64,000 bases of DNA from Nitriliruptorales bacterium (GTDB taxonomy: Bacteria; Actinomycetota; Nitriliruptoria; Euzebyales; JAHELV01), in NCBI GenBank assembly GCA_024644015.1, contig JAHELV010000002.1:57799-121798 (forward strand), given 5' to 3'. Made by a program: the position numbers and the translations under genes. Position 1 is the first letter of the stretch. Each line of letters begins with the position of its first letter. Shown one piece after another: positions 30,152-45,683 of this stretch. The notes under the pieces were generated by a model. That model searched no databases, was not told the origin of the DNA, and worked only from the letters and a program-made list of their open reading frames with translations.

Positions 30152-31198
30152 ATGGAGCGACCGTTGCGCGTCGGGATCCTTGCGCCCATTGCCTGGCGTG
30201 TCCCGCCGCGCGGGTACGGTCCGTGGGAGCGGTTCGTCGGGTTGCTGAGCGACGGCCTGGTCAAGGCCGGCCTCGATGTCACGCTGTTCGCGACCGCCGA
30301 CTCCCGGACGGCTGCGGAACTGGTCGGCACGGCACCGCATGGATGGTCCGAAGGTGGGTCGTTGGACCCCAAGGTCGAGGAGTGCCTGCACATCGCGAGC
30401 GCGATGGAACGCGCCGGCCAGTTCGACGTGCTCCACAACAGCTTCGACTTCCTCCCGCTGACCTACGCCGGGCTGGTCGAGACGCCGATGCTCACCACGA
30501 TCCATGGGTTCTCGTCCGAGGCCATCGTTCCGGTCTACGAGCGCTACGACGACCGCACCTGGTACGTGGCCATAAGCACGGCCGATCGACATCCCCGTCT
30601 GCACTACGCCGGGACCATCCCGCACGGCATCGACGTCGCGCGCGGGCGTGCCCGGACCACGCCGGGCGATCACCTGCTGTTCTTCGGCCGCATCCATCCC
30701 GAAAAGGGCACGGCACAGGCGATCGAGGTCGCTCGCGCCGCCGGGCTGCCGCTGCACATCGCGGGCATCGTCCAGGATCCCGACTACTTCGCGCGACACG
30801 TCGAACCGCACGTCGACGGCACGTCCGTGGTGTGGCTCGGCGCGGTCGACGCAGAACACCGTGGCGAGACGCTCGCCGGCGCCCGGGCCCTGCTGCACCT
30901 CATCGACTTCGAGGAGCCGTTCGGCCTGTCGGTCGCCGAGGCGATGGCGTGCGGCACACCGGTGATCGCGTACCGTCGCGGGTCGATGCCCGAGCTCGTC
31001 GACGACTGCTCGACCGGATTCCTGGTCGACGGGATCGACGAGGCGGTCGCCGCGGTCGCGGCCGTGGCCGACCTCGACCGTGCCAAGATCCGCCGGGTCG
31101 CAGCCGAGCGCTTCGACGTTCAGGTCATGGTCGACCGCTACATCGACGTGTATCACCGCATCGTCACCGGCGAGATCGCGCCGCTCGACGATCGTTAG
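30152..31198 (+). CDS. GT4-family glycosyltransferase
   Basis: I trimmed the track ORF to ATG 30152 (MERPLRVGILAPIAWRVPPRGYGPWERFV). The C-terminal GT-B motif EPFGLSVAEAMACGTPVIAYRRGSMPELV (E-x7-E type) is present. Confidence 0.85.
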   Translation: MERPLRVGILAPIAWRVPPRGYGPWERFVGLLSDGLVKAGLDVTLFATADSRTAAELVGTAPHGWSEGGSLDPKVEECLHIASAMERAGQFDVLHNSFDFLPLTYAGLVETPMLTTIHGFSSEAIVPVYERYDDRTWYVAISTADRHPRLHYAGTIPHGIDVARGRARTTPGDHLLFFGRIHPEKGTAQAIEVARAAGLPLHIAGIVQDPDYFARHVEPHVDGTSVVWLGAVDAEHRGETLAGARALLHLIDFEEPFGLSVAEAMACGTPVIAYRRGSMPELVDDCSTGFLVDGIDEAVAAVAAVADLDRAKIRRVAAERFDVQVMVDRYIDVYHRIVTGEIAPLDDR

Positions 31199-32709
31199 CC
31201 GGGCCGGGTGCTGCCGCCGTTGAGCCGTGCGCGCCCGCTCCTGACGAGGCGGTCGAGCAACTCGGCCAGCGGGAACGTCGCTATGGCCGAGCCGGTGTCG
31301 GAAAAGCCATAGGGCACCACCAGGTTGTCGGCGTGGACCAGACCGCCGCACGAGTAGACGACATTGGGCACATAGCCGTCCCGTTCGTCGCCCGCCGGCT
31401 CGAGCAGGGCGTGGGGGAGGTATCCCAGCGGGCGGACAGGATCGTGCAGATCGAGCAGCAGCGCGCCGATGGCGTAGCGGCGCATCGGCCCGACACCGTG
31501 GGTGAGCACCAGCCAACCGGCGTCGGTCTCGATCGGCGACCCGTTGTTGCCGAGTTGGATCAGGTCCCACGTGACGGTGCCCGGACGCCAGACGACCGCG
31601 GGCTCGGCTTCCCAGTCGCGCGGATGGTCCGACGTTGCGAAGGCGATGCTCTCGCGGTCGGGGCGCGTCAGGGCCGCGTAGCGACCGTCGATGCGACGCG
31701 GGAACAACGCCATCCCCTTCGTCTGATCTTCGACGCCGTGCAGGGTCAGGATGCGAAACGAGCGAAAGTCGGGAGTCTCGATCAGCTGCGGGCGCACGGT
31801 GAAGCCGTCATACGCCGTGTAGGTCGCGTAGTAGCGCACGCCGTCGTCGTCGACGAAGCGGACGAACCGCGCGTCCTCCATGCCCCGGCTCTCGCTCGGG
31901 CCCGCCGGGAACAGCACGCGGTCGCCGACCTGGGAGTCGTCCGGGAACGACGCGATGTAGTTGGTGGACGCCAGCCAGTGCGACAGCCGTAGCATGTCGT
32001 GCGTCGCCTTGTCGACCGACTGGTCGGCGGTGAACGCGTGCAGCCAGCTCTCGAGCTCCTCCATCGAGAAGCGAGGGGGGAGGTGGCGCAGCAGCGCGGC
32101 GACGATGTCGGCGTCTGCTCCGGCGGTGACCAGCTGCCGGCTGAACATCGCGGCGTCGTACGCCGGCGCGCTGCGCTGCGCTCCGACGACGTAGCCGCTG
32201 AGCGGATCGACCTGCGCGCCGCCGGCGGCGTCGAGCACGCCGCTGCGGAACACGATCGACGACAGGTGCCCCTCACCGATGGCGCGCGCAGACATGATGA
32301 ACGGCAGGTCGCCGTCCGACGTCGTCGCCGGGTCGGGCGCGGCGACCATCGACGGGTTCGTGAGCGCGGCGGCTTCGATCGCGTACTCCTGCGTGAAGTA
32401 GGCGCCGAGCAGGCGCACGCGCTCGTCGGAGAGGTCCACCAGGCCGTCGTGTGAGCTTTGGACCATCGCTGCATGGCGTCTGAGCAGCGCATCGAGGTCG
32501 TGGTGCCGTCCGGCGAAGGTGTCTTTGACCTGACCGAGGACAGTACCGACTTCGGCGTCGGGTATGGCGAGCACGCGATCGATGACGGCCGTGACCCGTG
32601 AGGTCGTCGAGATGCCACCCCACTCCCCGGGAACGAAAGGGCGGGCGAGCACCCGACGGGGATCCGGACGCAAGACGGTGGACAGCCGGTGCGCGCGAAC
32701 CCCGGTCAT
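31195..32709 (-). CDS. GH130-like glycoside phosphorylase/hydrolase (beta-mannoside phosphorylase fold) with a ~190-aa N-terminal extension
   Basis: C-terminal five-bladed-propeller pattern: GMEDARFVRFVDDDGVRYYATYTAYDG...KGMALFPRRIDGRYAALTRP...WDLIQLGNNGSPIETDAGWLVLTHGVG...YAIGALLLDLHDP...VPNVVYSCG...VVPYGFSD. Its stop overlaps the convergent GT4 stop. Confidence 0.7.
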   Translation of the reverse strand: MTGVRAHRLSTVLRPDPRRVLARPFVPGEWGGISTTSRVTAVIDRVLAIPDAEVGTVLGQVKDTFAGRHHDLDALLRRHAAMVQSSHDGLVDLSDERVRLLGAYFTQEYAIEAAALTNPSMVAAPDPATTSDGDLPFIMSARAIGEGHLSSIVFRSGVLDAAGGAQVDPLSGYVVGAQRSAPAYDAAMFSRQLVTAGADADIVAALLRHLPPRFSMEELESWLHAFTADQSVDKATHDMLRLSHWLASTNYIASFPDDSQVGDRVLFPAGPSESRGMEDARFVRFVDDDGVRYYATYTAYDGFTVRPQLIETPDFRSFRILTLHGVEDQTKGMALFPRRIDGRYAALTRPDRESIAFATSDHPRDWEAEPAVVWRPGTVTWDLIQLGNNGSPIETDAGWLVLTHGVGPMRRYAIGALLLDLHDPVRPLGYLPHALLEPAGDERDGYVPNVVYSCGGLVHADNLVVPYGFSDTGSAIATFPLAELLDRLVRSGRARLNGGSTRPG

Positions 32710-32877
32710 GGACCGGGCCCCCGAGATCGGCCGGCCCTGCTCATGGCGTCTGACCTGATGCGTTCGCCACCAGAGGTCATCGCACGTCGTTCGTCGGTCG
32801 CAGAATCAAGGATTGTACGCGACGCGCGGAGGGAAGCGTTGCGGCGCTCACTTCTCTCCCAGTCGAGGACACCCCAC

Positions 32878-34077
32878 ATGGCCACCTCGCTGCCGCATCT
32901 CCACAGACCCCCCACGTCCGCGTCGATCGCCGTGCTCAGCACGTATCCGCCGACACGCTGCGGCCTGGCGTCGTTCTCGTCCGCGCTCGTCGATGCACTC
33001 GTGACCCAAGACCCCGGACGCCACGTCGGAGTCGTCGCCATCGACGGCACCCGGCAGCCCAGCGGAGAGGTCGTCGCCACGCTCGCCGGAGGCGGGCCGC
33101 ACCATCTGCAGGCCGCCGCGGCCGCGCTCAACCGGTTCGAGACGGTCATCCTCCAGCACGAGTACGGCATCTTCGCCGGGCCGGACGGCGATTCGGCGGT
33201 CGCCCTGCTCGAACGCGTCGTGCGGCCCGTGATCACCGTGCTCCACACCGTGCTCGACCAGCCGACGCCCTGCCAGCGGCGTGTGCTGGAACAGGTGGTC
33301 GATGGCAGCGTCGCCGCAGTCGTCATGACCGAAGTCGCGAAGGCGCGACTGCTCCGGCGCTACGTCGTGGACCCGGCGAAGGTGCGTGTCATCCCACACG
33401 GGTCGTCGGCCCCGGCCGGTGCGCGCGTGCGGCGGGACGAGCGGCCGCTGCTGCTGACCTGGGGGCTGCTCGGCCCCGGCAAGGGCGTCGAGCTCGCGAT
33501 CGACGCGCTGCGCGGACTGCGCGACCTGCGGCCTCTGCCGCGGTACGTGGTCGCCGGTCAGACGCATCCGAAGGTGCGCGAGCAGTCCGGCGAGGCGTAT
33601 CGCGAGCTGCTGATGGCGCGGGCGTGCGACCGGGACGTCGACGCGATGGTCGAGTTCGACGATCGCTACCTCGATCGCCGCGCGCTCGGCGCGCTGATCC
33701 AGCGGGCCAGCGTGGTGGTCCTGCCCTACGAGTCACGCGAACAGGTGACCTCCGGCGTGCTGGTCGATGCGCTGGCGTGCGGAACGCCCGTGGTGACGAC
33801 CGCGTTCCCGCACGCGGCCGAGGTCTGTGCGCGGGGCGCCGGCATCGCCGTGCCCCATGGAGACGTCGATGCCCTGGCGGAGGCGTTGCGGCGGGTGATC
33901 GCCGATCGCAGGCTCGCCTCCCGCCTGCGGGCCGCCGCGAGGGGCATCGGCAGCGAGCTGTCATGGCAGTCCGTCGCCGTGCGGTACGCAGCCCTGGCCG
34001 ACGAGGTCACCGGCCGCAACCACCCGCTGCCGTTCGCCGGTGCGACCCGTGCGCCTGCGATCGTGGCCGCGCGGTGA
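32878..34077 (+). CDS. GT4-family glycosyltransferase (second copy)
   Basis: I trimmed the track ORF to ATG 32878 (MATSLPHLHRPPTSASIAVLSTYPPTRCGLASFS). C-terminal motif YESREQVTSGVLVDALACGTPVVTTAFPHAAEV. Confidence 0.8.
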   Translation: MATSLPHLHRPPTSASIAVLSTYPPTRCGLASFSSALVDALVTQDPGRHVGVVAIDGTRQPSGEVVATLAGGGPHHLQAAAAALNRFETVILQHEYGIFAGPDGDSAVALLERVVRPVITVLHTVLDQPTPCQRRVLEQVVDGSVAAVVMTEVAKARLLRRYVVDPAKVRVIPHGSSAPAGARVRRDERPLLLTWGLLGPGKGVELAIDALRGLRDLRPLPRYVVAGQTHPKVREQSGEAYRELLMARACDRDVDAMVEFDDRYLDRRALGALIQRASVVVLPYESREQVTSGVLVDALACGTPVVTTAFPHAAEVCARGAGIAVPHGDVDALAEALRRVIADRRLASRLRAAARGIGSELSWQSVAVRYAALADEVTGRNHPLPFAGATRAPAIVAAR

Positions 34078-35126
34078 GCATCCGCATGCACGCCTTGGCT
34101 GGTGAGCGGCCCGGCGGCCGGCGGCCGGGAAGTCTCGCGCATCTCCTCCGGCTCACCGACGACGTCGGCCTGCTCGAACACGCCGACCACGCTGTTCCGC
34201 GGGTCGAACATGGATACTGCGTCGACGACAACGCCCGGGCGGTCGTCGTCGTCGAGCGTGCGCTGACTGAGGTGCCCGGTGTCGCCGGCATCTTCGATCG
34301 CTACGTCGAGTTCGTGCTCGCGGCGCAGGCGCCCGACGGTCGCTTCCACAATCGCCTCGACTACGCCGAACGTCGGTGGCTGGACCCCGCTGGGACAGGC
34401 GACTGGTGGGGTCGGGCCATGTGGGCGATGGGTCACGTCGCGGCTCGTCGACCGACACACCGGCTCGCCGAACGCGCGCGAGCGGCGTTCGTCGCGGGCG
34501 CGAACCACCGCAGCGCCCATCGCCGTGCGATGGCGTTCGCGGCGCTCGGGGCCGCAGAGCTGCACCGCGGCGCAGCATCGCCGCACGAGGCGTCGGTCGC
34601 CGCGGAAGTGCTGAACGACGCGGTCACCGTGATCGGCCGCCCAGGCGAGCCCGGCTGGCCGTGGCCGGAGCCGCGACTGACATACGCCAACGCGAGGCTG
34701 CCGGAGGCCCTGATCGCGGCTGGGACGACGCTACACCACGCCACCGCGTTGAACGACGGCCTGGCGCTGCTGGGCTGGCTCGCCGATGTCGAGACCCGTG
34801 GTGCCATGATGAGCTTCACGCCGGTCGGCGGGTGGGCGCCAGGTGAGCCCCGCCCGGCGTTCGATCAGCAGCCCATCGAGGCGTGGGCGATGGCGGCGGC
34901 GGCCGCCCGCGCGTCGCGCGCCACCGGCGACGAGCGCTGGGCGACGCTCGTCGCGCACTGCGACGCGTGGTTCACTGGCGCCAATGACCGCGGAGTCCCA
35001 GTCGTCGATCTCGAATCCGGCGGTGGCTGCGACGGCCTCACCGCCGACGGCCGCAACGAGAACCAGGGCGCCGAATCGACGTTGGCGTTCATTGCGACAC
35101 GCCAGATCGCACAACGGGGACCGTAA
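34074..35126 (+). CDS. Conserved hypothetical protein translationally coupled to GT4; a glycoside-hydrolase-like helical barrel fold is only a weak guess
   Basis: GTG 34074 overlaps the GT4 stop (GTGA). GC3 is high throughout. Motifs HGYCVDDNARAVVVV and GDWWGRAMWAMGH. No family could be named with certainty. Confidence 0.5.
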   Translation: MSIRMHALAGERPGGRRPGSLAHLLRLTDDVGLLEHADHAVPRVEHGYCVDDNARAVVVVERALTEVPGVAGIFDRYVEFVLAAQAPDGRFHNRLDYAERRWLDPAGTGDWWGRAMWAMGHVAARRPTHRLAERARAAFVAGANHRSAHRRAMAFAALGAAELHRGAASPHEASVAAEVLNDAVTVIGRPGEPGWPWPEPRLTYANARLPEALIAAGTTLHHATALNDGLALLGWLADVETRGAMMSFTPVGGWAPGEPRPAFDQQPIEAWAMAAAAARASRATGDERWATLVAHCDAWFTGANDRGVPVVDLESGGGCDGLTADGRNENQGAESTLAFIATRQIAQRGP

Positions 35127-35183
35127 CCCGGTGAACGCGAGCGGTTGCCGGCTGAGACCCGGCAACCAAGGGAGTGGCGCGAC

Positions 35184-36014
35184 GTGAGCGGAAGCGTCAG
35201 CGTGGTGGTTGCCCGGCGCGTGCGGGACGGCGCGGAGGGCGCATTCGTCCAGTGGGCGACGCGCATCATCGCGGAGGCGGCGCGTGCTCCGGGGTTCCTC
35301 GGCGCCGAGCTGCAAAGACCCGACCAGGCGCATCCGGACGCGTGGGTCACCGTGTACCGCTTCGCGACCGCCGAGGAGTTGGCCGCGTGGCGCTCGTCTG
35401 AGCGGCGGGCCGCTCTGATCGACGAGATCGCTCCTTCATTGCAGGGGACGGTCAAGGAGCAGTTGGTCGCCGAGCCGGCGCGCTCCGACACACCGGTGAC
35501 CGTTGTGATGTCCCAACAGATCCGTCGTGGGCGCGCGCGGGACTTCGAGGCGGCTCACGACGGTGTGGTCACGAAGCTGTCGGCGTTCCCCGGGTTTCTG
35601 CGGTCCGAGCTCATCCCGCCGGTCGACGGCGTCTCCGGCGACCACGTCATCGTCTTCGCGTTCGACGCTCGCGCCAACCTGGATCGCTGGCTCGAATCCG
35701 ACGAACGTCGATCGTGGCTGGAACAGGTCACCCCACTGATCGAGGGGGACCGCAAGATGAACGTCGTCGGCGGTTTCGCAGGCTGGTTCCGAGCGACCGA
35801 CGATGCACACACGCCGAAATGGAAGCAGGCGACGGCGGTCCTGCTGGCGTTGTTCCCGACGGCCCTCACCCTGAGCCTTCTTCGCCAGGCGCTCCTGCCC
35901 GACCTGGCGCTGGTCCCGAGCGTGTTTCTGTCCAACGTGCTGGGCGTCGCAGTGTTGACGTGGCTGCTCATGCCGTGGGTCACCCGCGCGCTCGGACCGT
36001 GGCTCAAGCACTGA
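35184..36014 (+). CDS. Tandem ABM (antibiotic-biosynthesis-monooxygenase-like) domains with a C-terminal two-span membrane anchor
   Basis: Two repeats of the ferredoxin-like barrel (VSVVVARRVRDGAEGAFVQWATRI...VTVYRFATAEELAAWRSSERR and VTVVMSQQIRRGRARDFEAAHDGV...VIVFAFDARANLDRWLESDER). These are followed by hydrophobic KQATAVLLALFPTALTLSLL...VLGVAVLTWLLMPWV. GTG 35184 with AAGGGAG upstream is preferred over the TTG at 35145. Confidence 0.65.
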   Translation: MSGSVSVVVARRVRDGAEGAFVQWATRIIAEAARAPGFLGAELQRPDQAHPDAWVTVYRFATAEELAAWRSSERRAALIDEIAPSLQGTVKEQLVAEPARSDTPVTVVMSQQIRRGRARDFEAAHDGVVTKLSAFPGFLRSELIPPVDGVSGDHVIVFAFDARANLDRWLESDERRSWLEQVTPLIEGDRKMNVVGGFAGWFRATDDAHTPKWKQATAVLLALFPTALTLSLLRQALLPDLALVPSVFLSNVLGVAVLTWLLMPWVTRALGPWLKH

Positions 36015-36023
36015 GGTCAACAG

Positions 36024-37028
36024 TCAGGTCAGCGCCCGGCGACACGCGCGGAAGAACTCGATCACCGTCCGGCGCTGATCGTCGGCCTGCACGACCTCCG
36101 ACAACGCCAACTCGGCGCCGACGAACGCATCGGCGTTCCACAGCGTGGACTCAGGGACCGTTTCGGGGCGCCAAGGCGTCACGTAGGCGTACGGCTGCGG
36201 GTGGGCGGCATCGCCGGGCGACATGCCGAAGCCGGCGCGCCGATCACCGGCGAGGCACTCGAACGCCGCGTCGAAGTGCTCCGGCCACAGCTGCACCCTG
36301 CTCGCCTCCACGCTCTCGGCGTCGGCACGCACCTCCTCGAGCACCGACCAGGCGAAGCCGAACCAGTCGCCGAGGAACGCCGCCGCACCGGGTTCGACGT
36401 CGAGGTGAGCATCCATGTCGCCGGCCGGTGGTACGTCGAGGCCCGCCGCCCAGTCCACGGCCGGAGCTCCGTCCAGAGCGAACGCCGCTGCCTCGGTGAG
36501 CGTCGAGATGGGCAACGCCCACGCATTCGGGCCCCGTTGACGGATCACGTTCGTGCCGTCGACGCGAACCTGCTCGTCGGCTCCGAAGAACGGGGTGCCA
36601 AAGCCGCCCCGTGTGTAGCGCAGTGCCATCTTGCCCTCGCTGGCGCGCTGCCTGGCGGGCGACAGGACATACACCGCCAGGCGGTGCAGCGCGTTGCGTG
36701 TACGCGCGTAGCCGTCGGGTGGCCGCGACAGCCGCCGGTGCCGCCCGAGCCAGCGGTCGCGCAGCCATCCCGCCGGCAGGTCGATCGCGTCCGAGGAGGC
36801 CAACCTCGACCAGGTGAGATCGCCGCGTCCCCGGACCGGCGAGATGACCTGTGTGTCCGGATCGGACGAGGTCGCGTCGACAGGGTCGTCGGCCCACCAC
36901 GGCGAAGCGGTGATCGCGGGCGGCGACGGCTCGAGGACGCGGGGGTCGTAGTGCGCCCCGGCGACGGCACGCGCTTCGGCGCGTGGGTCGCGGGCGGCGA
37001 TGGCGGTGACGGGAAGTGAGGTGACCAT
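36024..37028 (-). CDS. Hypothetical protein (334 aa), last gene of the Rieske-TPP operon
   Basis: This is the 3' part of the chimeric 979-aa track ORF. ATG 37028 overlaps the stop of the upstream gene (ATGA). GC3 is high and the amino-acid composition is not Arg/Pro-biased. I recognise no motif. Confidence 0.6.
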   Translation of the reverse strand: MVTSLPVTAIAARDPRAEARAVAGAHYDPRVLEPSPPAITASPWWADDPVDATSSDPDTQVISPVRGRGDLTWSRLASSDAIDLPAGWLRDRWLGRHRRLSRPPDGYARTRNALHRLAVYVLSPARQRASEGKMALRYTRGGFGTPFFGADEQVRVDGTNVIRQRGPNAWALPISTLTEAAAFALDGAPAVDWAAGLDVPPAGDMDAHLDVEPGAAAFLGDWFGFAWSVLEEVRADAESVEASRVQLWPEHFDAAFECLAGDRRAGFGMSPGDAAHPQPYAYVTPWRPETVPESTLWNADAFVGAELALSEVVQADDQRRTVIEFFRACRRALT

Positions 37029-37030
37029 GA

Positions 37031-39037
37031 TCACACCAACTGCGGGTCGTTGACGATGTGGACCAGTGACGGGCCGGGGTGGGCCAGGGCCGCGCGCAGC
37101 GCCGGTTCGAGCTCGTCGAGCGTGCCGGCGCGCAGGCCCCGGACGCCGCACAACTCCGCGAACGCCGCGAAGTCGGGGTTGCGCAGCGACGTCTGCCACA
37201 CGTCCCACTCGCCCGCGCGCTGCTCCTTGGAGATCTTGCCCAGCTCGCCGTTGTCGAGCAGCACGTGGGTGATCGGCATGTCGTACTTGGCGAGCGTCGT
37301 CAGCTCCATGGCGTACTGCCCGAACCCGCCGTCGCCGCTGATCCCGATGACCTTGCGGCTGTCGCCGACCGCCGCCCATGCGCCCATCGCCGCCGGGAGA
37401 CCGAACCCGATGGAGCCGAGGTAGCCCGACATCAGCACGTCCTGCGCGCCCGACGACTCGAAGTAGCGCCCGAACGAGTACGCGTTGTTGCCGACGTCCA
37501 CGCACAGCACCGCATCGTGGGGCACGGTCCGGGTCAGCGCGTCGAAGATGGCCGCCGAGCCGACCCCGTGGCCGCGGTCGTCGCCTCGTCGCCGCTCCTT
37601 CTCGCGCTGCCACAGCGCCCGGCGCTCTGCCACCTCGCCGCGCAGGTCGACGCCGCCGGACGTGTCGGGCAGGCCGTCGATCAGCGCACGTGCGGTCACG
37701 CCAACGTCGCCGAGCACGGGCACGGTGACCGCGTGGAATCGCCCGAGCGCCATCGGGTCGCGATCGACCTGGACGATCGGCTTGTAGTCCGCGACTCCGG
37801 TGTGGTTGGAGAACGACGCGCCGAAGGCGATGACGAGGTCGCTTTCGTTCATGAACCACGACGCCACCGGTGTGCCGCTGCGGCCGAGCACGCCGCACCC
37901 GAGGGGATGCCGATCCGACATCATGCCCTTGGCCTTGAAGGTCGTCATCACGGGAGCGCCGAGTCGCTCGGCCACCGCGAGCACGTCGCGGATGCCGTCG
38001 CGCGCTCCGGCACCGACGATGATCAGCGGTCTGCGCGCCGCTGCGATCGCCGACCGCGCGGCCGCGAGCGCGTCGGCCGGAGGTGCGACGCGCAGGTCGC
38101 CGATGCGGCCGTCGGGCGGCTTCGCTGCCTGGTCGTCGCCGGCCGGCAGGTTCTGGACCTCGTCCGGGAACACCAGGTGGGCGACGTCGCGCTCGACGAT
38201 CGCCGTCTTGCATGCCAGCGCAACCAACTCGGCGTGGTCGCTGTCGGCCTGCACCGTCTTCGTGTAGCGGGCGACATCGGCGAACGCTCCGTTCAGGTCG
38301 ACATCCTGGAAGGCGCCACGGCCGAGCACCTTCGACGGCACCTGGCCCGACAGCGCCAGGACGGGCGCGCGGTCCGCCTTCGCGTCGTACAGCCCGGTCA
38401 GCAGGTTGGTCGACCCGGGCCCGGCGATGCCGAAACACGCCGCGGGGCGTCCAGTCAGCTTTCCGTACGCACCGGCGGCGAACGCGGCGGCACCCTCGTG
38501 ACGGATGCCGATGAAGCGCAGCTCGCCTTTGGCCTCGGCCGAGCGGAACGCGTCGGCGAGGCCGAGGTTGGAGTGGCCGACCATGCCGAACACATGGTCG
38601 ATGCCCCACGCCACCATGGTCTCGACCGCCACGTCGGCGATGGTGCGGGCGCGCGGTCGCTCGTCGGGAAGGGCGACCCAGACACCGTCGGACCGTACCT
38701 CGGTGCGGTAGCTGGCGGGTTTGTCGGAGAATGGTGGCGGCGGGGCACCGTTGCATGGCGAGTAGTCGTAGCCGTGCCAGGGGCAGCGCAGCCAGCCCTT
38801 CTCGATGGAACCCTCGCCCAGCGGGCCGCCCTGGTGCGGACAGCGGTTGTCGAGCGCGCCGTAACGACCGTTGAAGCGGGTCATCGCGAGCGTGCGGTGC
38901 CCGAGCGTCACTGTTGTGACGCGGCCGTCGGCCAGGTCGTCGGGGCCCAGCGCCCGCCACCACGTGTAGGCGCCGTCCGGGTGTTGCGGTGGGTCCAGCG
39001 AGGGGTCTGGCTTGACGGGTGCGGCGACGTCGGTCAT
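37031..39037 (-). CDS. Rieske [2Fe-2S] domain fused to a thiamine-pyrophosphate enzyme (pyruvate-oxidase / acetolactate-synthase superfamily)
   Basis: N-terminus: CPHQGGPLGEGSIEKGWLRCPWHG (C-x-H...C-x-x-H Rieske ligands). Then TPP_enzyme_N: GIDHVFGMVGHSNLGLADAF...IRHEGAAAFAAGAYGKLTGRPAACFGIAGPGSTNLLTGLYDA. Central domain: PLIIVGAGAR. TPP-binding: GISGDGGFGQYAMELTTLAKYDMPITHVLLDNGELG. I trimmed the start to ATG 39037 (MTDVAAPV). Confidence 0.85.
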   Translation of the reverse strand: MTDVAAPVKPDPSLDPPQHPDGAYTWWRALGPDDLADGRVTTVTLGHRTLAMTRFNGRYGALDNRCPHQGGPLGEGSIEKGWLRCPWHGYDYSPCNGAPPPPFSDKPASYRTEVRSDGVWVALPDERPRARTIADVAVETMVAWGIDHVFGMVGHSNLGLADAFRSAEAKGELRFIGIRHEGAAAFAAGAYGKLTGRPAACFGIAGPGSTNLLTGLYDAKADRAPVLALSGQVPSKVLGRGAFQDVDLNGAFADVARYTKTVQADSDHAELVALACKTAIVERDVAHLVFPDEVQNLPAGDDQAAKPPDGRIGDLRVAPPADALAAARSAIAAARRPLIIVGAGARDGIRDVLAVAERLGAPVMTTFKAKGMMSDRHPLGCGVLGRSGTPVASWFMNESDLVIAFGASFSNHTGVADYKPIVQVDRDPMALGRFHAVTVPVLGDVGVTARALIDGLPDTSGGVDLRGEVAERRALWQREKERRRGDDRGHGVGSAAIFDALTRTVPHDAVLCVDVGNNAYSFGRYFESSGAQDVLMSGYLGSIGFGLPAAMGAWAAVGDSRKVIGISGDGGFGQYAMELTTLAKYDMPITHVLLDNGELGKISKEQRAGEWDVWQTSLRNPDFAAFAELCGVRGLRAGTLDELEPALRAALAHPGPSLVHIVNDPQLV

Positions 39038-39068
39038 CAGCGTGCCTCCGGTGAGGTGTGTCCGCTGC

Positions 39069-39806
39069 TCAGCGGTGCTCGGGGTTGGGGTAGTCGAAAC
39101 GGCAGCCGGCGTCCCACTCGGAGCGCTGGTTGCCGTGCGCGGGGATCCCACCGGCGTCCTTGAGCATCCGCGCCATGTGCAGCAGGTTCCACGTCATGAA
39201 CGTCGTGTTGCGGTTCGTGAAGTCGTTCTCGGGTCCGCCGGAACCCGGGTCGGCGTACGACGGGCCGGGACCCGCCTCGCCGATCCAGCCCGCGTCTGCC
39301 TGCGGCGGGATCGTGTAGCCCAGGTGCTGCAGCGAGTACAGGATGTTCATGGCGCAGTGCTTGACGCCGTCCTCGTTGCCGGTGACCAGGCAGCCGGCGA
39401 CCCGCCCGTAGTAGGCGTACTGGCCGGCGTCGTTGAGTAGATGGCTGTTGCCGTACAGCCGCTCGATGACCTGGGTGCACACCGACGACTTCTCGCCCAG
39501 CCAGATCGGCGTGATGAGCACCAGGATGTCGGCGGCCATCACCTTCTCGAAGACGGCGGGCCAGTCGTCGCGCTCCCAGCCGTGTTCGGTCATGTCGGGC
39601 CACACGCCGGTGGCGATCGCTTGATCAACCGCACGCACCGACTCGACCTCCACGCCCTGCTTCTGCAGCAGCGAGATCGACCGGTCCGCGAGGACCTGCG
39701 TGTGTGACTGCTCCGGTGACCGTTTCAGCGTGCAGTTGATGAAGATCGCCCGCAGGTCGCTGTAGTCCTGCGCGCCGTTGCCGCTGGCCATGTCGGTGGT
39801 GCTCAT
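39069..39806 (-). CDS. NAD(P)H-dependent FMN reductase / flavodoxin-like fold protein
   Basis: LRAIFINCTLKRSPEQSHTQVLADRSISLLQKQGVEVESVRAV...ADILVLITPIWLGEKSS is the FMN_red/flavodoxin_2 pattern. It lies 31 nt upstream of the Rieske-TPP gene on the same strand. Confidence 0.8.
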   Translation of the reverse strand: MSTTDMASGNGAQDYSDLRAIFINCTLKRSPEQSHTQVLADRSISLLQKQGVEVESVRAVDQAIATGVWPDMTEHGWERDDWPAVFEKVMAADILVLITPIWLGEKSSVCTQVIERLYGNSHLLNDAGQYAYYGRVAGCLVTGNEDGVKHCAMNILYSLQHLGYTIPPQADAGWIGEAGPGPSYADPGSGGPENDFTNRNTTFMTWNLLHMARMLKDAGGIPAHGNQRSEWDAGCRFDYPNPEHR

Positions 39807-39961: not shown

Positions 39962-41296
39962 CTACAGCGCGGCGATTCCCGCCGGGCTGCCCAGGGGGCT
40001 GAAGTCGATCGGCGCCTGATCGCCGTCGATTGTCTTCGGTAGGCCCGGGAACTCGCCGAGCTTGGTGAGGCTGCCGTCGCTGCCGATCTGCCAGGCGCCG
40101 ACCTTGCCCGCGCCGGGCAGGACCACGTACAGGAACCGCCCGTTGCCACTGACGGCCATGTCGAGCGGCGTGGTGCCCTGCAGGTTGCCGGGATCATCGG
40201 TCGTGCCGGCGACCTGCTCGAGCAATGTCAGCTGCCCGTCGCTGCCGACGCGGAAGCTGGACACCGTGCCCGAGGTGTAGTTCGCGCCGAAGGCGTACCT
40301 GCCGTTGTTGACGACCCAGCACGTGTCGAACTGGTGGTCGAACTCGCCGTCGGTGATGGCTGTCAGCGTCCCGTCGTCGTTGATCCGGTACGAGCCGGCG
40401 GCGCCGGTCGGGATCGGCGTGCCGCCGAGGTCCTCGGGCGTGCCGCCGACGAAGAGCGCGACGAGCATGTTGCCGTGACGGTCGAACGAAAACCCGAACG
40501 GCCCGCGGAAGCCGAAGTCGGTTCGCGTGTAGTCGGCCGACGGCCGGCCGTCCCGCACCGACCAGACCAGCACGCGGCCCGGGCCGGTCGGCTCGACGCC
40601 GTCCACGAGGTCGGGCGACGGACCATCCTTGATCGTCACGACCAGCTGCCGGCCGTCGGGCGTGAACGACACCTGCGTCGGGTTGTACAGCGCGTCCGGC
40701 GCGAAGCGCTGCTGGTTGGCGTCGAGCGTCCGGCGTGAGCCCGCGATCGGCGTGAGCTTGCCGTCGTTCGACAGTCGGAAGCCGGTGATCGACCCCTCGT
40801 CGGCGGAGTTGAGGACGTACACCAGCTTGCCGTGCTGCGTGACGCTGTTGGGGAACCGCTGACCGGGCGAGCCGTCACCAGTGACCACGATGTCGGTGCG
40901 CTCCAAGCGGTCGCGGTGCACCCGGAAGACCGTCACGTCGTTGCTGCCCGCGTTCGTGACGAACAGGAACCGACGGTCGTGGCTGAGGGTCACCGAGCCA
41001 CCGGAGCCCAGCCCGTCGCCGGCGAAGCGCTGACCGGGACCCGACCCCTGGCCGCCGGTGTCGAAGTAGCCGCGCAGTTGCAGGCGACCGTCGGGCCCGC
41101 GGGTGTACATGGCCACCTGGTTCGCCGGCTCGGCCGGGTCAGTGGCGTTCGTGTTGTTGTGGTTCGTGCCTACGAAGACCGCGCCGGCGGGTGGTGTCTT
41201 CTCGGCGGCGAAGGCGGATGGGACGAGCATGCCGATCAGGAGCATGGAGGCCGTCACCCTGGCGATGACGCGCCGAAGCGTCGGGGTCATGGGCAT
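39962..41296 (-). CDS. Secreted lactonase-type 7-bladed beta-propeller protein
   Basis: I trimmed the track ORF to ATG 41296 (AAGGAA RBS). The signal peptide MPMTPTLRRVIARVTASMLLIGMLVPSAFAAE is followed by repeated propeller-blade patterns (RFLFVTNAGSNDVTVFRV; KLVYVLNSADEGSITGFRL; RQLVVT; RYAFGANYTSGTVSSFRV; RFLYVVLPGAGKVGAWQI). Confidence 0.75.
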   Translation of the reverse strand: MPMTPTLRRVIARVTASMLLIGMLVPSAFAAEKTPPAGAVFVGTNHNNTNATDPAEPANQVAMYTRGPDGRLQLRGYFDTGGQGSGPGQRFAGDGLGSGGSVTLSHDRRFLFVTNAGSNDVTVFRVHRDRLERTDIVVTGDGSPGQRFPNSVTQHGKLVYVLNSADEGSITGFRLSNDGKLTPIAGSRRTLDANQQRFAPDALYNPTQVSFTPDGRQLVVTIKDGPSPDLVDGVEPTGPGRVLVWSVRDGRPSADYTRTDFGFRGPFGFSFDRHGNMLVALFVGGTPEDLGGTPIPTGAAGSYRINDDGTLTAITDGEFDHQFDTCWVVNNGRYAFGANYTSGTVSSFRVGSDGQLTLLEQVAGTTDDPGNLQGTTPLDMAVSGNGRFLYVVLPGAGKVGAWQIGSDGSLTKLGEFPGLPKTIDGDQAPIDFSPLGSPAGIAAL

Positions 41297-41349: not shown

Positions 41350-42543
41350 TCAGAAGTGGGCGATCAGCGGGCAGTTGGAGATCAGGCCGCTGGGCCCGAC
41401 GTCGCCGCCTTCGAGCGCGGTCAGCGACCCGGCGCGGGCGAGGCGGACGACCTCCAGCTCGCTGCCGATCCGGGACCGATACCCGTTGGCGATCGCGTCG
41501 TCGGTCCAGACGGCCACGTACAGGTCCCACATGGGGCTGTATGCGGCGCCGTTCAGCACGCCCGGCGCGCCGTCGAAGATGTCGAGCACCTGCGCGCCCG
41601 CGTCGCCGAGCGCGCTGTTGAGCCCCTGTCGCTGCGGGTTGTCGGCACCGGTGGGCCCGTTGACGATGATGTAGTTGGCCGACACCGCCGAGTCGCTCGC
41701 GTCGTTGCGGCCGACGGGCAGGCTCTTCTTGAGCCGCGGCACGAACGTCGTCGCCTCGAGCGCCGAGACGAGCTCGCTGTTCGAGTCGAGGCTGATGAAC
41801 AGGATCGGCCGGTCCGAGGACGTGCCGACGTTCATGGTCAGCGTGATCGTCTTGTTGGCCGGTGAGATCGCCACCGCCCGGTCGATGACCAGCGAGTAGT
41901 CGATGCCGCCGTCGGGGAACTCGATCTGCGCAGCCGACACGTCGAAGGCCACGATCGTGGCGTTGAGCACGACGTCGTGCTGGTTGCCCACCCGTACCAG
42001 CGGCGAGTAGGCCGCGTCGCCCTCCGACCCCGGTTGCGCCTGCGCCGGCGGGAAGAAGTCAGGCGCCGCACCGGCGGTGACGACCCGCTCAGGTGAGAAG
42101 TCGACCGTGCCCGCGTCGAAGACCAGCGTGCCGTGATGTCCACGCCGGGCGCTGCGGACCGCGGCGTCAGGCGCGTTGGCCAGTTTGGGCGACCAGTTGA
42201 CGCCCAGCCTGCGCGCGGTCGCACGGTCGGAGGCGTCGGTCACCACATACCACACGCTGCGGCCATCGCGCATCGCTCCTCGTCGCAACGGCAGCGTCAC
42301 GGTGCCCTGGTCGGCGTTGATCCGCCCCGAGGGCAGGATCGGCTCCAGGTCGTACCCGACGGGGAAGTAGTCGGCGACGACGGGTGGGGTCTCGACGAAC
42401 AGCGCGTCCGGGTCGCCGCCAGCTTGTTGATCGACGGGCGTCACCGCGGCGCTGCCGAGCAGCAGCACGACGGCGGGAGCGGCGATCAGCGAGCGCCAGC
42501 GGCCGGAGACAAGTGGCCGCCCGGGTATGCGGAACCTGTGCAT
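41350..42543 (-). CDS. Secreted hypothetical protein (~397 aa)
   Basis: I trimmed the track ORF to the internal ATG (MHRFRIPGRPLVSGRWRSLIAAPAVVLLLGSAAV looks like a signal peptide or anchor). GC3 is high and the composition is balanced. I recognise no catalytic motif. Confidence 0.6.
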   Translation of the reverse strand: MHRFRIPGRPLVSGRWRSLIAAPAVVLLLGSAAVTPVDQQAGGDPDALFVETPPVVADYFPVGYDLEPILPSGRINADQGTVTLPLRRGAMRDGRSVWYVVTDASDRATARRLGVNWSPKLANAPDAAVRSARRGHHGTLVFDAGTVDFSPERVVTAGAAPDFFPPAQAQPGSEGDAAYSPLVRVGNQHDVVLNATIVAFDVSAAQIEFPDGGIDYSLVIDRAVAISPANKTITLTMNVGTSSDRPILFISLDSNSELVSALEATTFVPRLKKSLPVGRNDASDSAVSANYIIVNGPTGADNPQRQGLNSALGDAGAQVLDIFDGAPGVLNGAAYSPMWDLYVAVWTDDAIANGYRSRIGSELEVVRLARAGSLTALEGGDVGPSGLISNCPLIAHF

Positions 42544-42613
42544 GGCATCGTCCTGACTGTTGAGTTCGCACGTTGCGTGCGGCAACAGTCACGACGCGTG
42601 GACGACCGTTACA

Positions 42614-43294
42614 TCAGACGACGCCAACGTTCGTGCGCAGGATGTGTTCGTGGAACCATGAGGCCTGCAGTGCGCGCTCCAGCGCGGCGGCGTCGGCGGT
42701 GCGTTGAGCGACGTGGGCGGCCGTGAACGCGACGAGGTTCGCCCGTCCGGCCGCACCGAACATGATCGCGTCGGCGAGATAGCCGACGACGTCCGCGGCA
42801 TCCGTGACGCCGGTCTGGTCCGGAGTTGTCGCCGCGGCCCGCTTGGTGCCGCTCGGCGCTGTCAACGTCGCGCTCGTCACGCCGTGCAGCTCGTCGATGC
42901 GTGAACAGGCCCCGAGCTGCGCCGCGCGCGCCACATCGCCGACGCCCGTCAAGGCGACGACGGCGTGGTCACGGATCCGCCAGATGCACGCGTGCGCGAA
43001 CGCCACGGCGGCGTTGGCGTCCCAGGCCGCGATCCGTTCGACCAGGCGGCCGGACGGTGCGACGACGTGGTACGGCTCGTCGACGTGCGCTCCGCCGAGC
43101 TCGAGCGCCCACAGCTCGTCGCAGATCCAGTACGGCAGGTCGGCGGGTTGGCACGCGTGGATCCCGTTGCGGCACGGCGACGGCGCGCCGCCGGCGTGCA
43201 CCCACGGGCCCGGTGTCGGACCCGTCGGGCGCGGCCACGCGAACCCGGTGAACGGACCGACCGCACCTGTGCGCAGGAACTTGTACGCCAACAC
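42614..43294 (-). CDS. Hypothetical cytoplasmic protein (~226 aa) immediately downstream of the anti-sigma gene
   Basis: GTG 43294 lies 16 nt after the anti-sigma stop. The N-terminal block is VLAYKFLRTGAVGPFTGFAWP...PCRNGIHACQPADLPYWICDELWALEL (spaced Cys/His). The C-terminal half is helical and Ala-rich. I cannot name a family. Confidence 0.55.
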   Translation of the reverse strand: MLAYKFLRTGAVGPFTGFAWPRPTGPTPGPWVHAGGAPSPCRNGIHACQPADLPYWICDELWALELGGAHVDEPYHVVAPSGRLVERIAAWDANAAVAFAHACIWRIRDHAVVALTGVGDVARAAQLGACSRIDELHGVTSATLTAPSGTKRAAATTPDQTGVTDAADVVGYLADAIMFGAAGRANLVAFTAAHVAQRTADAAALERALQASWFHEHILRTNVGVV

Positions 43295-43310
43295 GAGCGG
43301 ACTCCGACCG

Positions 43311-43556
43311 TCAGTGTTCGTGCCAGTCGCGGAAGGCACGCAGCAGCTCGTCCCGCGACGTGGGCGGGATGGACTCGGCGGGAAGCCTGCCAACGGCGGC
43401 GATGGTGGCTCGCATCTGGTCCAGGTACGTGGTGCAGTCCTCGCAGATGCTGATGTGCAGCTCGAACCGCACGCGCTCCGACGGTGGCAGGTCGCCTTCG
43501 AGGTAGTCAGTGACCAGCTCCACGAGCTCCTTGCAGGTCACGCCGCGGTCGATCAT
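43311..43556 (-). CDS. Soluble zinc-binding anti-sigma factor (ZAS, RsrA-like, 81 aa)
   Basis: These are the last 81 codons of the 354-aa track ORF. MIDRGVTCKELVELVTDYLEGDL...FELHISICEDCTTYLDQM carries C-x26-H-x3-C-x2-C, the spacing of the RsrA zinc/redox ligands. There is no TM segment. The ATG overlaps the sigma stop (ATGA). Confidence 0.8.
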   Translation of the reverse strand: MIDRGVTCKELVELVTDYLEGDLPPSERVRFELHISICEDCTTYLDQMRATIAAVGRLPAESIPPTSRDELLRAFRDWHEH

Positions 43557-44230
43557 CGCGTCACCAACCGTCGGTCCATGTACTCCTCGAGCCGCGCGCG
43601 GACCGCCGCACGCGCGCGGTGCAGCAGCACCCGCTGGTTCGCCTCGGACAGTCCCAACGTCGCACACACTTCCTTTGAGGTGAAGCCCTGCTCGTCGCGC
43701 AGCGTGATCACCGCTCGCTGTCGCGGCCCGAGCTCGTCGATCGCCCGTCGGATGACGTCGCCCGTCTCCTTCGACAGCAGGCTGTCCTCGGGCGCCCACT
43801 CGCGTGGGGGTCTGGCCCAGTCGTGGCCCCAGCGGTGTGAGGCGTCGAGGAACCGGTCCGCGTCGACGGTCGCGGCGTGGTCGCGTTCGTCGTGCACCGC
43901 CGACAGCGGGATGCTGCGTGCTTCCCGCACTCCTCGGGTCTTGCTGAGGTTGGTGACGATGCGAAAGACCCATGTCCGCAGGGACGACCGGCCCTCGAAA
44001 CGCGAGATGCCCCGCACCACCCCCATCCAGGCATCCTGCACGACCTCCTCGGCCACGGCGCGGCTGGAGACGTGGAGCAGGGCGACACGCAACATCGCGG
44101 AGGACCATCGGTCGATGAGCGCGGCGAAGGTCGGCTCGTGCCCGGCCCGCAGCGCCGCGATGACGGCGGCGTCGTCGGACAGGTCCACAGGGACGGCGGT
44201 CGACGCCGAACGTTCGACCGGCACGGCCAT
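43553..44230 (-). CDS. ECF (group 4) RNA polymerase sigma factor
   Basis: Sigma-2: AEEVVQDAWMGVVRGISRFEGRSSLRTWVFRIVTNLSKTR. Sigma-4: LGPRQRAVITLRDEQGFTSKEVCATLGLSEANQRVLLHRARAAVR. The two regions are joined by a long linker. I trimmed the start to ATG 44230 (MAVPVER). Confidence 0.85.
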   Translation of the reverse strand: MAVPVERSASTAVPVDLSDDAAVIAALRAGHEPTFAALIDRWSSAMLRVALLHVSSRAVAEEVVQDAWMGVVRGISRFEGRSSLRTWVFRIVTNLSKTRGVREARSIPLSAVHDERDHAATVDADRFLDASHRWGHDWARPPREWAPEDSLLSKETGDVIRRAIDELGPRQRAVITLRDEQGFTSKEVCATLGLSEANQRVLLHRARAAVRARLEEYMDRRLVTR

Positions 44231-44459
44231 GGGCGCCCCCTGTTCGATCTCGGCGCAGCGTACTCGACCCGCGCTGCGGGTGGGTAGGTCGATGCGCGAG
44301 ATCACGTGGATACCGTCTCGCGACGGCGGTGAGCGTTACACAGCAATTCGCCTTCGGCCGCGACAGCGGTGGCATGTCGACGCCGGCGGGTCATGCGTAA
44401 CGAACCGAGCACGCGCGAGACAGCACGCTCACCACACTCCCACGCGCTGTGAGGACGTC

Positions 44460-45683
44460 ATGCCCGAGGTATCGCTCAGCGGCTTCGCGATCGTGACGGC
44501 GGTCGCGTTCGCCGTCCCGTTGATTGCGGGGCTGTTCCCACGTGTCCGCCTTCCCGGTGCGGTACTCGAGATCGTCGCGGGCATCGTGATCGGCCCGTCC
44601 GTTCTCGGTTGGGTCCAGATCGACGAACCGTTGCAGGTGCTGGGGCTCATCGGGTTGGCGTTCCTGTTGTTCCTGGCGGGCCTCGAGATCGACTTCGTCC
44701 ACCTGCGCGGCACGCTCCTGCGCGCCGCCGTCCTCGGATTCGCGCTGTCGTTCGCGATCGCGCTGCTGATCGGCGGGGGCCTGGCCGCGTTCGGGGTGGT
44801 GCAGTCCGCGTTGCTGGTGGCGATCATCCTCACGTCGACGTCGCTGGGCGTCATCGTGCCGCTGCTCAAGGACGCCGGACAGGCGGGAGCGCGGTTCGGT
44901 CAGCTCGTGATCGCCGCGGCGTCCATCGCGGACTTCGGCGCGGTGATCCTGCTGTCGCTGTTCTTCTCCCGCGAGGCCACGGGCATCGGCGCCCAGTTGC
45001 TCCTGCTCGGCGGCCTGGCCGTCCTGGCCCTCGTGCTCGGGTTCGGCGTCGCCGAGGCGTCGCGTTCCGCACGCCTGTCCGCGGAGCTCATCGCGCTGCA
45101 GGACAGCAGCGCCCAGATTCGCGTCCGCGGTGCGGTCGTATTGCTCGCCGTGTTCATCTGGTTCGCGCAGCTCGTCGGACTCGAGGTGATCCTGGGCGCC
45201 TTCATCGCCGGCGCGGTGCTGCGTCTGGTCGACCGGTCGACCATGACCCATCCGACGTTCCGCACGAAGCTCGACGCGCTCGGCTACGGCATGTTCATCC
45301 CGATCTTCTTCGTCACCAGCGGGGTGCGCTTCGACGTCGCGGCGCTGACCGCAGACCGCTCTGCGCTGGCAACGATCCCGCTGTTCGTCGTCGCGCTTCT
45401 GGCCGTGCGCGGACTGCCGGCACTGCTGTACACCCGCCAGATCGGTGCGCGACTGACCGGCGTTGCGGCGCTGTTGCAGGCGACGTCGCTGCCGTTCATC
45501 GTCGCCGCCGCCCAGATCGGCATGGAACTGGGTGTCCTGAGCACCGCGGTCGGTGCGGCGCTCGTCGCGGCCGGGCTGGTGTCGGTCCTGGTGTTCCCGC
45601 TGGCGGCGCTTTCGCTGCTGCGCCCGATGCCGACGCCCATGGTCGCCGGCGTCGACACGGCGGCGCCGTCAACGACCAGTTGA
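44460..45683 (+). CDS. Cation:proton antiporter (CPA2/Kef-type Na+/H+ exchanger family)
   Basis: Only the 3' 407 codons of the 959-aa track ORF look real. MPEVSLSGFAIVTAVAFAVPLIAGLF...LEIVAGIVIGPSVLGW...LLFLAGLEIDF is the classic Na_H_Exchanger N-terminal pattern. Confidence 0.85.
   Translation: MPEVSLSGFAIVTAVAFAVPLIAGLFPRVRLPGAVLEIVAGIVIGPSVLGWVQIDEPLQVLGLIGLAFLLFLAGLEIDFVHLRGTLLRAAVLGFALSFAIALLIGGGLAAFGVVQSALLVAIILTSTSLGVIVPLLKDAGQAGARFGQLVIAAASIADFGAVILLSLFFSREATGIGAQLLLLGGLAVLALVLGFGVAEASRSARLSAELIALQDSSAQIRVRGAVVLLAVFIWFAQLVGLEVILGAFIAGAVLRLVDRSTMTHPTFRTKLDALGYGMFIPIFFVTSGVRFDVAALTADRSALATIPLFVVALLAVRGLPALLYTRQIGARLTGVAALLQATSLPFIVAAAQIGMELGVLSTAVGAALVAAGLVSVLVFPLAALSLLRPMPTPMVAGVDTAAPSTTS

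Follow-up and report, generated by a model that had tools for sequence, protein, structure and literature searches.

A 64,000-nucleotide stretch from a Nitriliruptorales bacterium (Actinomycetota; contig JAHELV010000002.1, positions 57,799 to 121,798; hereafter the window) contains, on its minus strand at positions 37031-39037, a gene in which a Rieske [2Fe-2S] domain is fused to a complete thiamine diphosphate (ThDP) enzyme of the pyruvate oxidase (POX)/acetolactate synthase (ALS) fold. The fusion is genuine and strongly selected for, as its conservation in hundreds of assemblies from different phyla reveals. The parts, a Rieske domain and an enzyme resembling POX and pyruvate:quinone oxidoreductase (PQO), are familiar, whereas the combination is new and we found no prior characterisation of it. 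As to function, we see about an even chance that the protein acts as a soluble 2-oxo acid dehydrogenase, similar to POX and PQO, with the Rieske domain as electron outlet to a protein acceptor.

The window has a GC content of ~70% throughout. Direct reading of the minus strand showed no internal stop in the 668 codons of the gene. A first-pass annotation, made from the letters of the DNA alone, had described an uninterrupted 668-aa fusion of Rieske and thiamine pyrophosphate (TPP) enzyme domains, with a complete set of Rieske ligands and the motifs GDGGF and LLDNGELG. Pfam searches recovered exactly this layout, with Rieske (PF00355; aa 26-98, E 1.4e-14, 54 bits vs a cutoff of 20) followed by TPP_enzyme_N, M and C, and the two motifs lie at aa 568-572 and 593-600. 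The spacing of the ligands had to be corrected: 13 residues, instead of 17, separate CPHQGG from CPWHG, and 16 separate H68 from C85. The ATG at 39037 is most likely the start, rather than an upstream GTG at 39151, since a GGAGG motif at 39049-39045 favours the former; in the family alignment, the homologues start at the same position. The features of the gene are as follows:

37031..39037, minus strand: Rieske::ThDP-enzyme fusion gene, 668 aa, from ATG 39037 to TGA 37033-37031 (open reading frame, ORF, and translation)
39045..39049, minus strand: GGAGG Shine-Dalgarno/ribosome-binding site, 7 nt before the fusion ATG (direct reading)
38666..38965, minus strand: Rieske ferredoxin-type [2Fe-2S] domain, aa 25-124 (Pfam, PDB sequence matches and AlphaFold2, AF2, model)
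38774..38842, minus strand: cluster-ligand motif C66-P-H68-x16-C85-P-W-H88, with the Rieske ligands C66, H68, C85 and H88
38297..38644, minus strand: ThDP pyrimidine-binding (PYR) domain, TPP_enzyme_N, aa 132-247 (Pfam E 1.3e-33)
37682..38065, minus strand: central domain, TPP_enzyme_M, equivalent to the FAD-binding domain of POX, PoxB and PQO, aa 325-452 (Pfam E 3.7e-33)
37055..37498, minus strand: ThDP diphosphate-binding (PP) domain, TPP_enzyme_C, aa 514-661 (Pfam E 9e-34)

The AF2 model of the protein had a pLDDT of 85.9 and a pTM of 0.85 (pLDDT 84-96 for the Rieske domain). Both this model and a family alignment of 103 sequences from several phyla, on which the conservation figures given below for the fusion are based, showed a linker of only ~7 residues between the Rieske domain and the enzyme core.

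Searching 5.8 billion proteins, we found the Rieske and the three TPP_enzyme domains together in all of the at least 120 best clusters listed, which contained proteins of ~650-690 aa with 68-100% identity to ours. Their names were generic: 'pyruvate oxidase', 'ThDP-dependent ALS-like / nitrite reductase ferredoxin subunit' or 'thiamine pyrophosphate-binding protein'. When one genome per species was scanned, relatives of the fusion turned up in at least 593 species-level genomes. We kept 80 of these loci (59-71% identity) for inspection and the fusion was full-length in every one. Most belonged to the Acidimicrobiia (Actinomycetota), the others to the Nitriliruptoria, Thermoleophilia, Acidobacteriota, Gemmatimonadota, Myxococcota, Poribacteria and Nitrospirales, and one to a gammaproteobacterial metagenome-assembled genome (MAG); sponge-associated MAGs (Poribacteria, Candidatus Poriferisodalis) were among the carriers, and the combination is frequent in uncultured Actinomycetota. 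The four cluster ligands were invariant in 102 of 102 family sequences, and the mean column conservation of the Rieske domain (0.74) was similar to that of the catalytic domains (0.75-0.83). A separate Rieske gene artificially joined to a ThDP-enzyme gene by a chimeric assembly or a frameshift can be rejected and retains practically no probability: the identical protein is encoded on an independent NCBI contig, and the same continuous ORF, with the same short junction, recurs in hundreds of assemblies across several phyla. The initial suspicion that no characterised TPP enzyme has a built-in Rieske domain was also borne out, at least as far as our searches reached. A full-text literature search brought up no paper describing either a Rieske-ThDP or a rubredoxin-ThDP enzyme, and no solved structure in the PDB spanned a Rieske domain plus a ThDP core, either by sequence search or with Foldseek.

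The Rieske domain resembled soluble ferredoxins. Its best PDB sequence matches were Rieske ferredoxins of multicomponent oxygenases, namely CarAc (1vck), that of naphthalene dioxygenase (NDO, 2qpz) and T4moC, to which the N-terminal domain of the fusion aligned over its full ~100 residues and with identical ligand spacing; the difference is that here the Rieske ferredoxin is covalently attached to a ThDP enzyme. The domain follows the C-x-H-x(15-17)-C-x-x-H rule of low-potential Rieske ferredoxins, and in the family alignment neither ligand pair is flanked by the disulfide cysteines of bc1-type Rieske proteins. A Pfam scan of the fusion, its two neighbours and the flanking genes did not detect any oxygenase catalytic alpha-subunit domain.

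The ThDP part was closest to redox-active flavoenzymes that use flavin adenine dinucleotide (FAD) and ThDP, judging from both sequence and model comparisons. By sequence, the best PDB matches were the POX of Lactobacillus plantarum (LpPOX, EC 1.2.3.3; E 3e-64), followed by PoxB of Escherichia coli and by the PQO of Corynebacterium glutamicum (both EC 1.2.5.1). Foldseek, applied to the AF2 model, ranked PQO (9ev5) first, then a C-terminally truncated PoxB (3eya) and LpPOX. The two quinone-dependent enzymes share the same three-domain ThDP fold with our protein (target-normalised TM 0.77-0.85), and ~550 columns of the model could be aligned to POX, PoxB, PQO and acetohydroxyacid synthase. Among NCBIfam models, the highest score was for the pyruvate oxidase PRK08611 (378 bits vs a cutoff of 742). 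The pyruvate oxidase TIGR02720 (287.5 bits vs 637.85) and the PoxB/PQO model PRK09124 (291 bits vs 792) followed at some distance, with PoxB-type and related pyruvate dehydrogenase models at ~290-320 bits and ALS models at ~280 bits. All equivalog cutoffs were missed by a wide margin; the protein is POX/PQO-like but belongs to no named orthologue group.

Most residues known to be important in LpPOX have conserved counterparts in the fusion (HMMER alignment). The catalytic Glu181, in the motif RHEGAA, which would activate N1' of ThDP, corresponds to E59; Phe243-Gln244 to F121/Q122; Arg386 to R264; Glu605 to E483; D569 and N596, which delimit the Mg/diphosphate motif (G568-D-G...N596, 25 residues between, within the GDG-x(24-27)-N pattern), to D447 and N474; and Ile543 to M422, the large hydrophobic residue enforcing the V conformation. 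All these positions are near-invariant in the family. PoxB and PQO likewise share with the fusion the catalytic Glu, the Mg/diphosphate motif and a Glu equivalent to PoxB E469. By contrast, two active-site residues are peculiar to the fusion family as compared with PoxB and PQO: the near-invariant His155 in the PYR domain, at a position that we take to correspond to Asp28 of pyruvate decarboxylase and Ser26 of benzoylformate decarboxylase, and Lys601, present in 102 of the 103 sequences at the site occupied by F479 in LpPOX and F465 in PoxB. We dropped Lys601 as evidence against electron transfer through the flavin, given that the alignment placed a Met at the same site in the C. glutamicum enzyme. 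As this bona fide PQO, like several members of the clade, does without the Phe relay, the latter is not essential for flavin reduction. The motifs G342-x-G344-A-R and Q423-x-D425-x-D427 are conserved in the central domain, which may bind FAD as its homologues do.

The C-terminus is a further point of divergence. The fusion stops ~45-60 residues short of the ends of LpPOX and PoxB: it ends at about residue 545 of 603 in the alignment with LpPOX, of which the last ~60 residues have no equivalent, and at residue 526 of 572, with 6 query residues left over, in that with PoxB. Hence, the PoxB membrane-anchor peptide is absent. Compared with PoxB and PQO, the protein has thus lost the amphipathic C-terminal tail for membrane and quinone docking (~46 residues) and gained an N-terminal Rieske domain.

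Sequences outside the Rieske family provided the strongest argument at hand for an electron-transfer role of this domain. An exhaustive HMMER search over 1.84 billion representative sequences, in which the Rieske family itself forms a few 50%-identity clusters, revealed that the closest non-family proteins are ThDP enzymes with an N-terminal rubredoxin, with 36-49% identity (P0265, 49%; P0269, 44%; P0280 and P0287, 38%; P0291, 36%). Like the Rieske family, these have a truncated C-terminus and a one-electron iron carrier at the N-terminus, and P0265 and P0269 also possess its 'GMVGHSNLG' motif, but their carrier is a ~45-residue rubredoxin instead of a ~100-residue Rieske domain. The POX tail was also missing in P0272, an unfused protein with 42% identity to the family. 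In addition, one cluster of the Rieske family itself, the 873-aa protein P0260, combines Fer4_19, two CDGSH [2Fe-2S] domains and a Rieske domain with TPP_enzyme_N/M/C. The recurrence of different iron carriers at the same position suggests that the N-terminal domain serves electron transfer and not sensing or structure, which lends independent support to the earlier idea of a built-in electron wire. The gene for P0265 (L170:1911-3722) is found among housekeeping genes (SmpB, TilS, FtsH) and adjoins a Peripla_BP_6 gene.

These comparisons make it possible to outline how the enzyme might work. A small 2-oxo acid would be oxidatively decarboxylated on ThDP and the two electrons would pass, as homology suggests, to a flavin in the central domain. 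From there, they might leave one by one through the fused [2Fe-2S] cluster towards another protein serving as acceptor. In this way, the role played in PoxB and PQO by the C-terminal docking tail that the family has lost would fall to the Rieske module. Because of the Rieske domain, a protein would also be a more plausible acceptor than O2, in contrast with LpPOX. The acceptor is probably not fixed. In the lineage of the window, the best candidate would be a WrbA-like flavin mononucleotide (FMN) protein encoded just upstream, which could provide, for example, a link from the Rieske cluster to quinone; in many other lineages, it could be a translationally coupled protein made of a Rieske domain and a glutamate-synthase-type FMN/Fe-S domain. 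FAD binding, the oxidative direction, the class of substrate and the identity of the acceptor are all elements that we infer from these comparisons. That the partner genes encode flavoproteins (FMN_red in one case, Rieske-Glu_synthase in the other) supports an electron outlet. The genes concerned are the following:

39069..39806, minus strand: FMN_red/WrbA-like flavoprotein gene, 245 aa (PF03358 E 1e-11, 45.2 bits vs a cutoff of 24)
36024..37034, minus strand: conserved protein directly downstream of the fusion, of 334 aa (ATG 37028) or 336 aa (GTG 37034)
L044:4351-5958, plus strand, in another genome: Rieske-Glu_synthase protein, 535 aa (Rieske plus PF01645)

The first-pass annotation had seen the window genes as a three-gene redox operon: an FMN reductase gene, the fusion and a downstream gene for a protein without recognisable motif. 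The FMN_red gene does end 31 nt upstream of the fusion start. However, the proposed ATGA overlap with the downstream gene was not what the sequence shows: the junction reads GTG-TGA-TC-ATG, so that the ATG at 37028 lies 2 nt past the stop, or else the GTG at 37034 overlaps it as GTGA. To examine how far this arrangement is conserved, we called genes with a GC3-based caller that reproduced the window genes, clustered their products, and inspected eight distinct loci of close relatives (73-100% fusion identity, window included) in addition to the 80 species-level loci. Among the eight, five (the window, L162/163, L164, L167 and L001) have FMN_red as the gene directly upstream of the fusion, and four encode the 334-aa protein, or a shorter relative of it, within 4 kb. 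The operon thus has support in the closest relatives, with exactly the same three-gene order at L162/L163 (84% identity) and, at L162, the same 2-nt spacing between fusion and downstream gene. Across the distant loci, this synteny disappears: FMN_red is adjacent to the fusion in only 2 of the 80 (L049 and L057), on the opposite strand both times, and tblastn detected a homologue of the 334-aa protein nearby in 22, full-length in 7 and shorter (~120-255 aa) in 15.

FMN_red has one solved homologue in the PDB, 5mji (E 8e-45), a 'BRAMP domain protein' about whose function a literature search returned nothing. At 90% identity, it falls into one cluster with 1264 members, named 'multimeric flavodoxin WrbA' by JGI. 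It is also unusually conserved, with 77-93% identity at loci whose fusions share only 68-84%.

As initially reported, the downstream protein carries no recognisable motif: we obtained no Pfam or NCBIfam match, 26 members of its family gave only two isolated chance matches against Pfam at E <=5, and a PDB profile search had zero matches at E <=10. Its AF2 model (pLDDT 88.9, pTM 0.89) consists of two similar units, each with a helix followed by about four beta-strands, for which Foldseek retrieved no relative in the PDB (best E ~1, TM <=0.14). Invariant residues in the family include H115, E231, E250-H251-x-D253 and D273. The family comprises ~2950 homologous clusters, and the 120 listed lacked any Pfam domain and were called 'hypothetical protein' where named. 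In 80 loci from soil metagenomes, its neighbours were RibD_C (reductase-type) genes in 41, glycoside hydrolase family 15 (GH15) genes in 23 and short-chain dehydrogenase/reductase (SDR) genes in 17, with cyclase and GMC oxidoreductase genes also among the usual ones, whereas the fusion was near in 1 and FMN_red in 2. We regard the 334-aa protein as a loosely linked accessory and not a core subunit.

The commonest neighbour of the fusion was instead a 535-aa protein combining a Rieske domain with Glu_synthase (PF01645) and containing a C-x5-C-x4-C-P motif, presumably comparable to the [3Fe-4S] site of glutamate synthase, which it resembles. Its gene is located directly upstream and on the same strand in 17 of the 80 species-level loci (L044, L008, L010, L021, L037, L047, L050, L056, L061, L078, L081 and others), with a 4-nt start/stop overlap in 10 of them. 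The family is widespread, under the names 'glutamate synthase-related protein' or, automatically assigned, 'methylamine-glutamate N-methyltransferase subunit C'. It is absent from the whole 64-kb window and was, therefore, invisible to the first-pass annotation.

Could the three window genes nonetheless form an obligate system, a dedicated complex or pathway with an electron flow from ThDP/FAD through the Rieske cluster to FMN_red and with the 334-aa protein as substrate-specific subunit? The tight spacing (31 nt containing a Shine-Dalgarno motif, then the 2-nt gap or overlap), the gene order kept at L162/L163, the frequencies among close relatives and the fact that FMN_red adjoins a 334-aa homologue elsewhere, at L145 and L151, all speak in its favour, and the three genes are indeed linked well above chance. 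However, 3 of the 8 close relatives have neither partner gene, the 80 distant loci have FMN_red adjacent only twice and a full-length 334-aa homologue only 7 times, the 334-aa family favours RibD_C, GH15 and SDR genes over the fusion, and an orthologue of FMN_red (>=90% identity) sits beside ABC/FtsX genes with no fusion near. We consequently regard an obligate three-component system as improbable; the three genes are a lineage-specific, loosely associated set and not a conserved three-component machine. An electron flow in the opposite direction, from NAD(P)H through FMN_red and the Rieske cluster to FAD/ThDP as terminal acceptor, on the model of three-component oxygenase systems, seems to us similarly doubtful. 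Such a system might carry out reductive or radical acyl transfer or carboxylation, or simply need a reduced flavin for activity. It would agree with the likeness of the Rieske domain to ferredoxins fed by flavin reductases, with the NAD(P)H-type FMN reductase gene directly upstream in the window clade and with the commonest partner family, as in glutamate synthase the Fe-S clusters normally feed electrons into FMN. Against it, the closest characterised homologues all run oxidatively, 2-oxo acids are decarboxylated oxidatively in a strongly exergonic reaction, and no reductase gene is found near the fusion in most of the family. No POX/ALS-fold enzyme with a characterised reductive reaction is known to us (no search was aimed at one).

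It is also conceivable, and in our opinion unlikely to the same degree, that the enzyme performs non-redox chemistry as a carboligase or lyase (ALS-, glyoxylate-carboligase- or Xsc-like), that any flavin is vestigial, and that the Rieske domain senses redox state or O2 or has a structural role. Several members of the POX/ALS fold are known to carry a catalytically silent FAD, the Phe relay of POX and PoxB is not kept, and ALS models also reach good scores (~280 bits). Nevertheless, independent fusions of this clade to rubredoxin and to CDGSH + Fer4 + Rieske argue for electron transfer as the selected function, the POX-specific R386 and E605 are kept, and the best matches in sequence and fold are redox-active enzymes. 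A more speculative proposal, which we rate as rather improbable, is that the Rieske domain is a docking 'plug' common to Rieske-tagged enzymes, through which 2-oxo acid oxidation would drive a reductive amination by the glutamate-synthase-like partner or feed a common acceptor. As for the soluble 2-oxo acid dehydrogenase with a Rieske outlet, to which we return as our preferred reading, several observations weigh against it. The protein falls far below every NCBIfam equivalog cutoff; the Phe relay from ThDP to FAD is replaced by Lys601, although PQO has Met at this site; His155 and Lys601/Lys604 are family-specific residues in the active site, such that the chemistry or the substrate may differ from pyruvate oxidation; and the two conserved motifs of the central domain occur in ADP-binding relatives too. 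Moreover, many of the 80 species-level loci show no conserved redox partner whatsoever, and FMN_red is a very common protein also present away from the fusion. Finally, Rieske ferredoxins of known systems usually take electrons from a flavin reductase, a flow that, by analogy, would fit the opposite direction.

Upstream of FMN_red and in the same direction, a pair of genes (39962-41296 and 41350-42585, both minus strand) encodes, respectively, a 'Lactonase' with a 7-bladed beta-propeller and a protein of the DUF7482 family. Signal-peptide-like segments at the start of both make their export probable. In close relatives (L162, L164, L168 and L169), genes for Lactonase and Na_H_Exchanger are again found near the fusion, perhaps simply as inherited gene order. 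Convergent with the 334-aa gene, 35145-36014 (plus strand) encodes a protein of 289 aa; it has two ABM (antibiotic biosynthesis monooxygenase) domains, and its hydrophobic C-terminal tail resembles a membrane segment. Further away, a cluster at 30152-35126 contains GT4-type glycosyltransferases (30152-31198 and 32839-34077), a GH130-like phosphorylase (31195-32709) and a 350-aa protein without Pfam match (34074-35126), apparently unrelated to the fusion. The high GC content left its mark on ORF prediction: a spurious 979-aa ORF (36024-38963) runs through the fusion gene in another frame, and a 959-aa ORF (42804-45683, plus strand) is probably over-extended, as Na_H_Exchanger matches only aa 571-933 and its N-terminal part looks like the stop-free, wrong-start stretch typical of 70% GC DNA. 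At such a GC content, scans for transcription signals in the 35.8-42.8 kb region say little: that for sigma-70 promoters found no promoter-like site, and that for terminators, likewise a weak test, found a single terminator-like match that did not exceed shuffled sequence.

A functional parallel lies outside the POX/ALS fold. In pyruvate:ferredoxin oxidoreductase (PFOR) and other 2-oxo acid:ferredoxin oxidoreductases, ThDP-dependent oxidation of 2-oxo acids proceeds without flavin and the electrons leave singly via protein-bound [4Fe-4S] clusters. The mechanism proposed for the fusion would be alike in principle. This is a functional analogy only, since the domain organisations are unrelated: the fusion has a POX/ALS fold and a [2Fe-2S] Rieske cluster in place of the [4Fe-4S] clusters, and no PFOR-type family appeared in its Pfam table or among the NCBIfam matches listed. 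The ThDP enzymes of the POX/ALS fold are textbook systems, known to release their electrons to O2 or to membrane quinone. The large and strongly conserved clade with a Rieske, rubredoxin or CDGSH centre on this scaffold would add a third outlet, protein-bound and operating by single electrons, and would bring a PFOR-like logic to an oxygen-tolerant fold. Where translational coupling links the Rieske-ThDP gene to that of the Rieske-bearing glutamate-synthase-type FMN/[3Fe-4S] protein, as in many genomes, the docking proposal, if true, would imply electron transfer from Rieske to Rieske without NAD(P)H or free ferredoxin. Such a soluble module would be undescribed and, with the relatives tagged by rubredoxin and CDGSH, would make up a new class of POX-fold 2-oxo acid dehydrogenases fused to iron carriers. 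The Rieske-glutamate-synthase-like partner and the 334-aa protein, for which the PDB offers no similar fold, represent two more uncharacterised families worth studying. The fusion family is common among Acidimicrobiia as well as in sponge-associated and marine lineages, and abundant uncultured bacteria may therefore use it to oxidise 2-oxo acids by a route not recognised so far.

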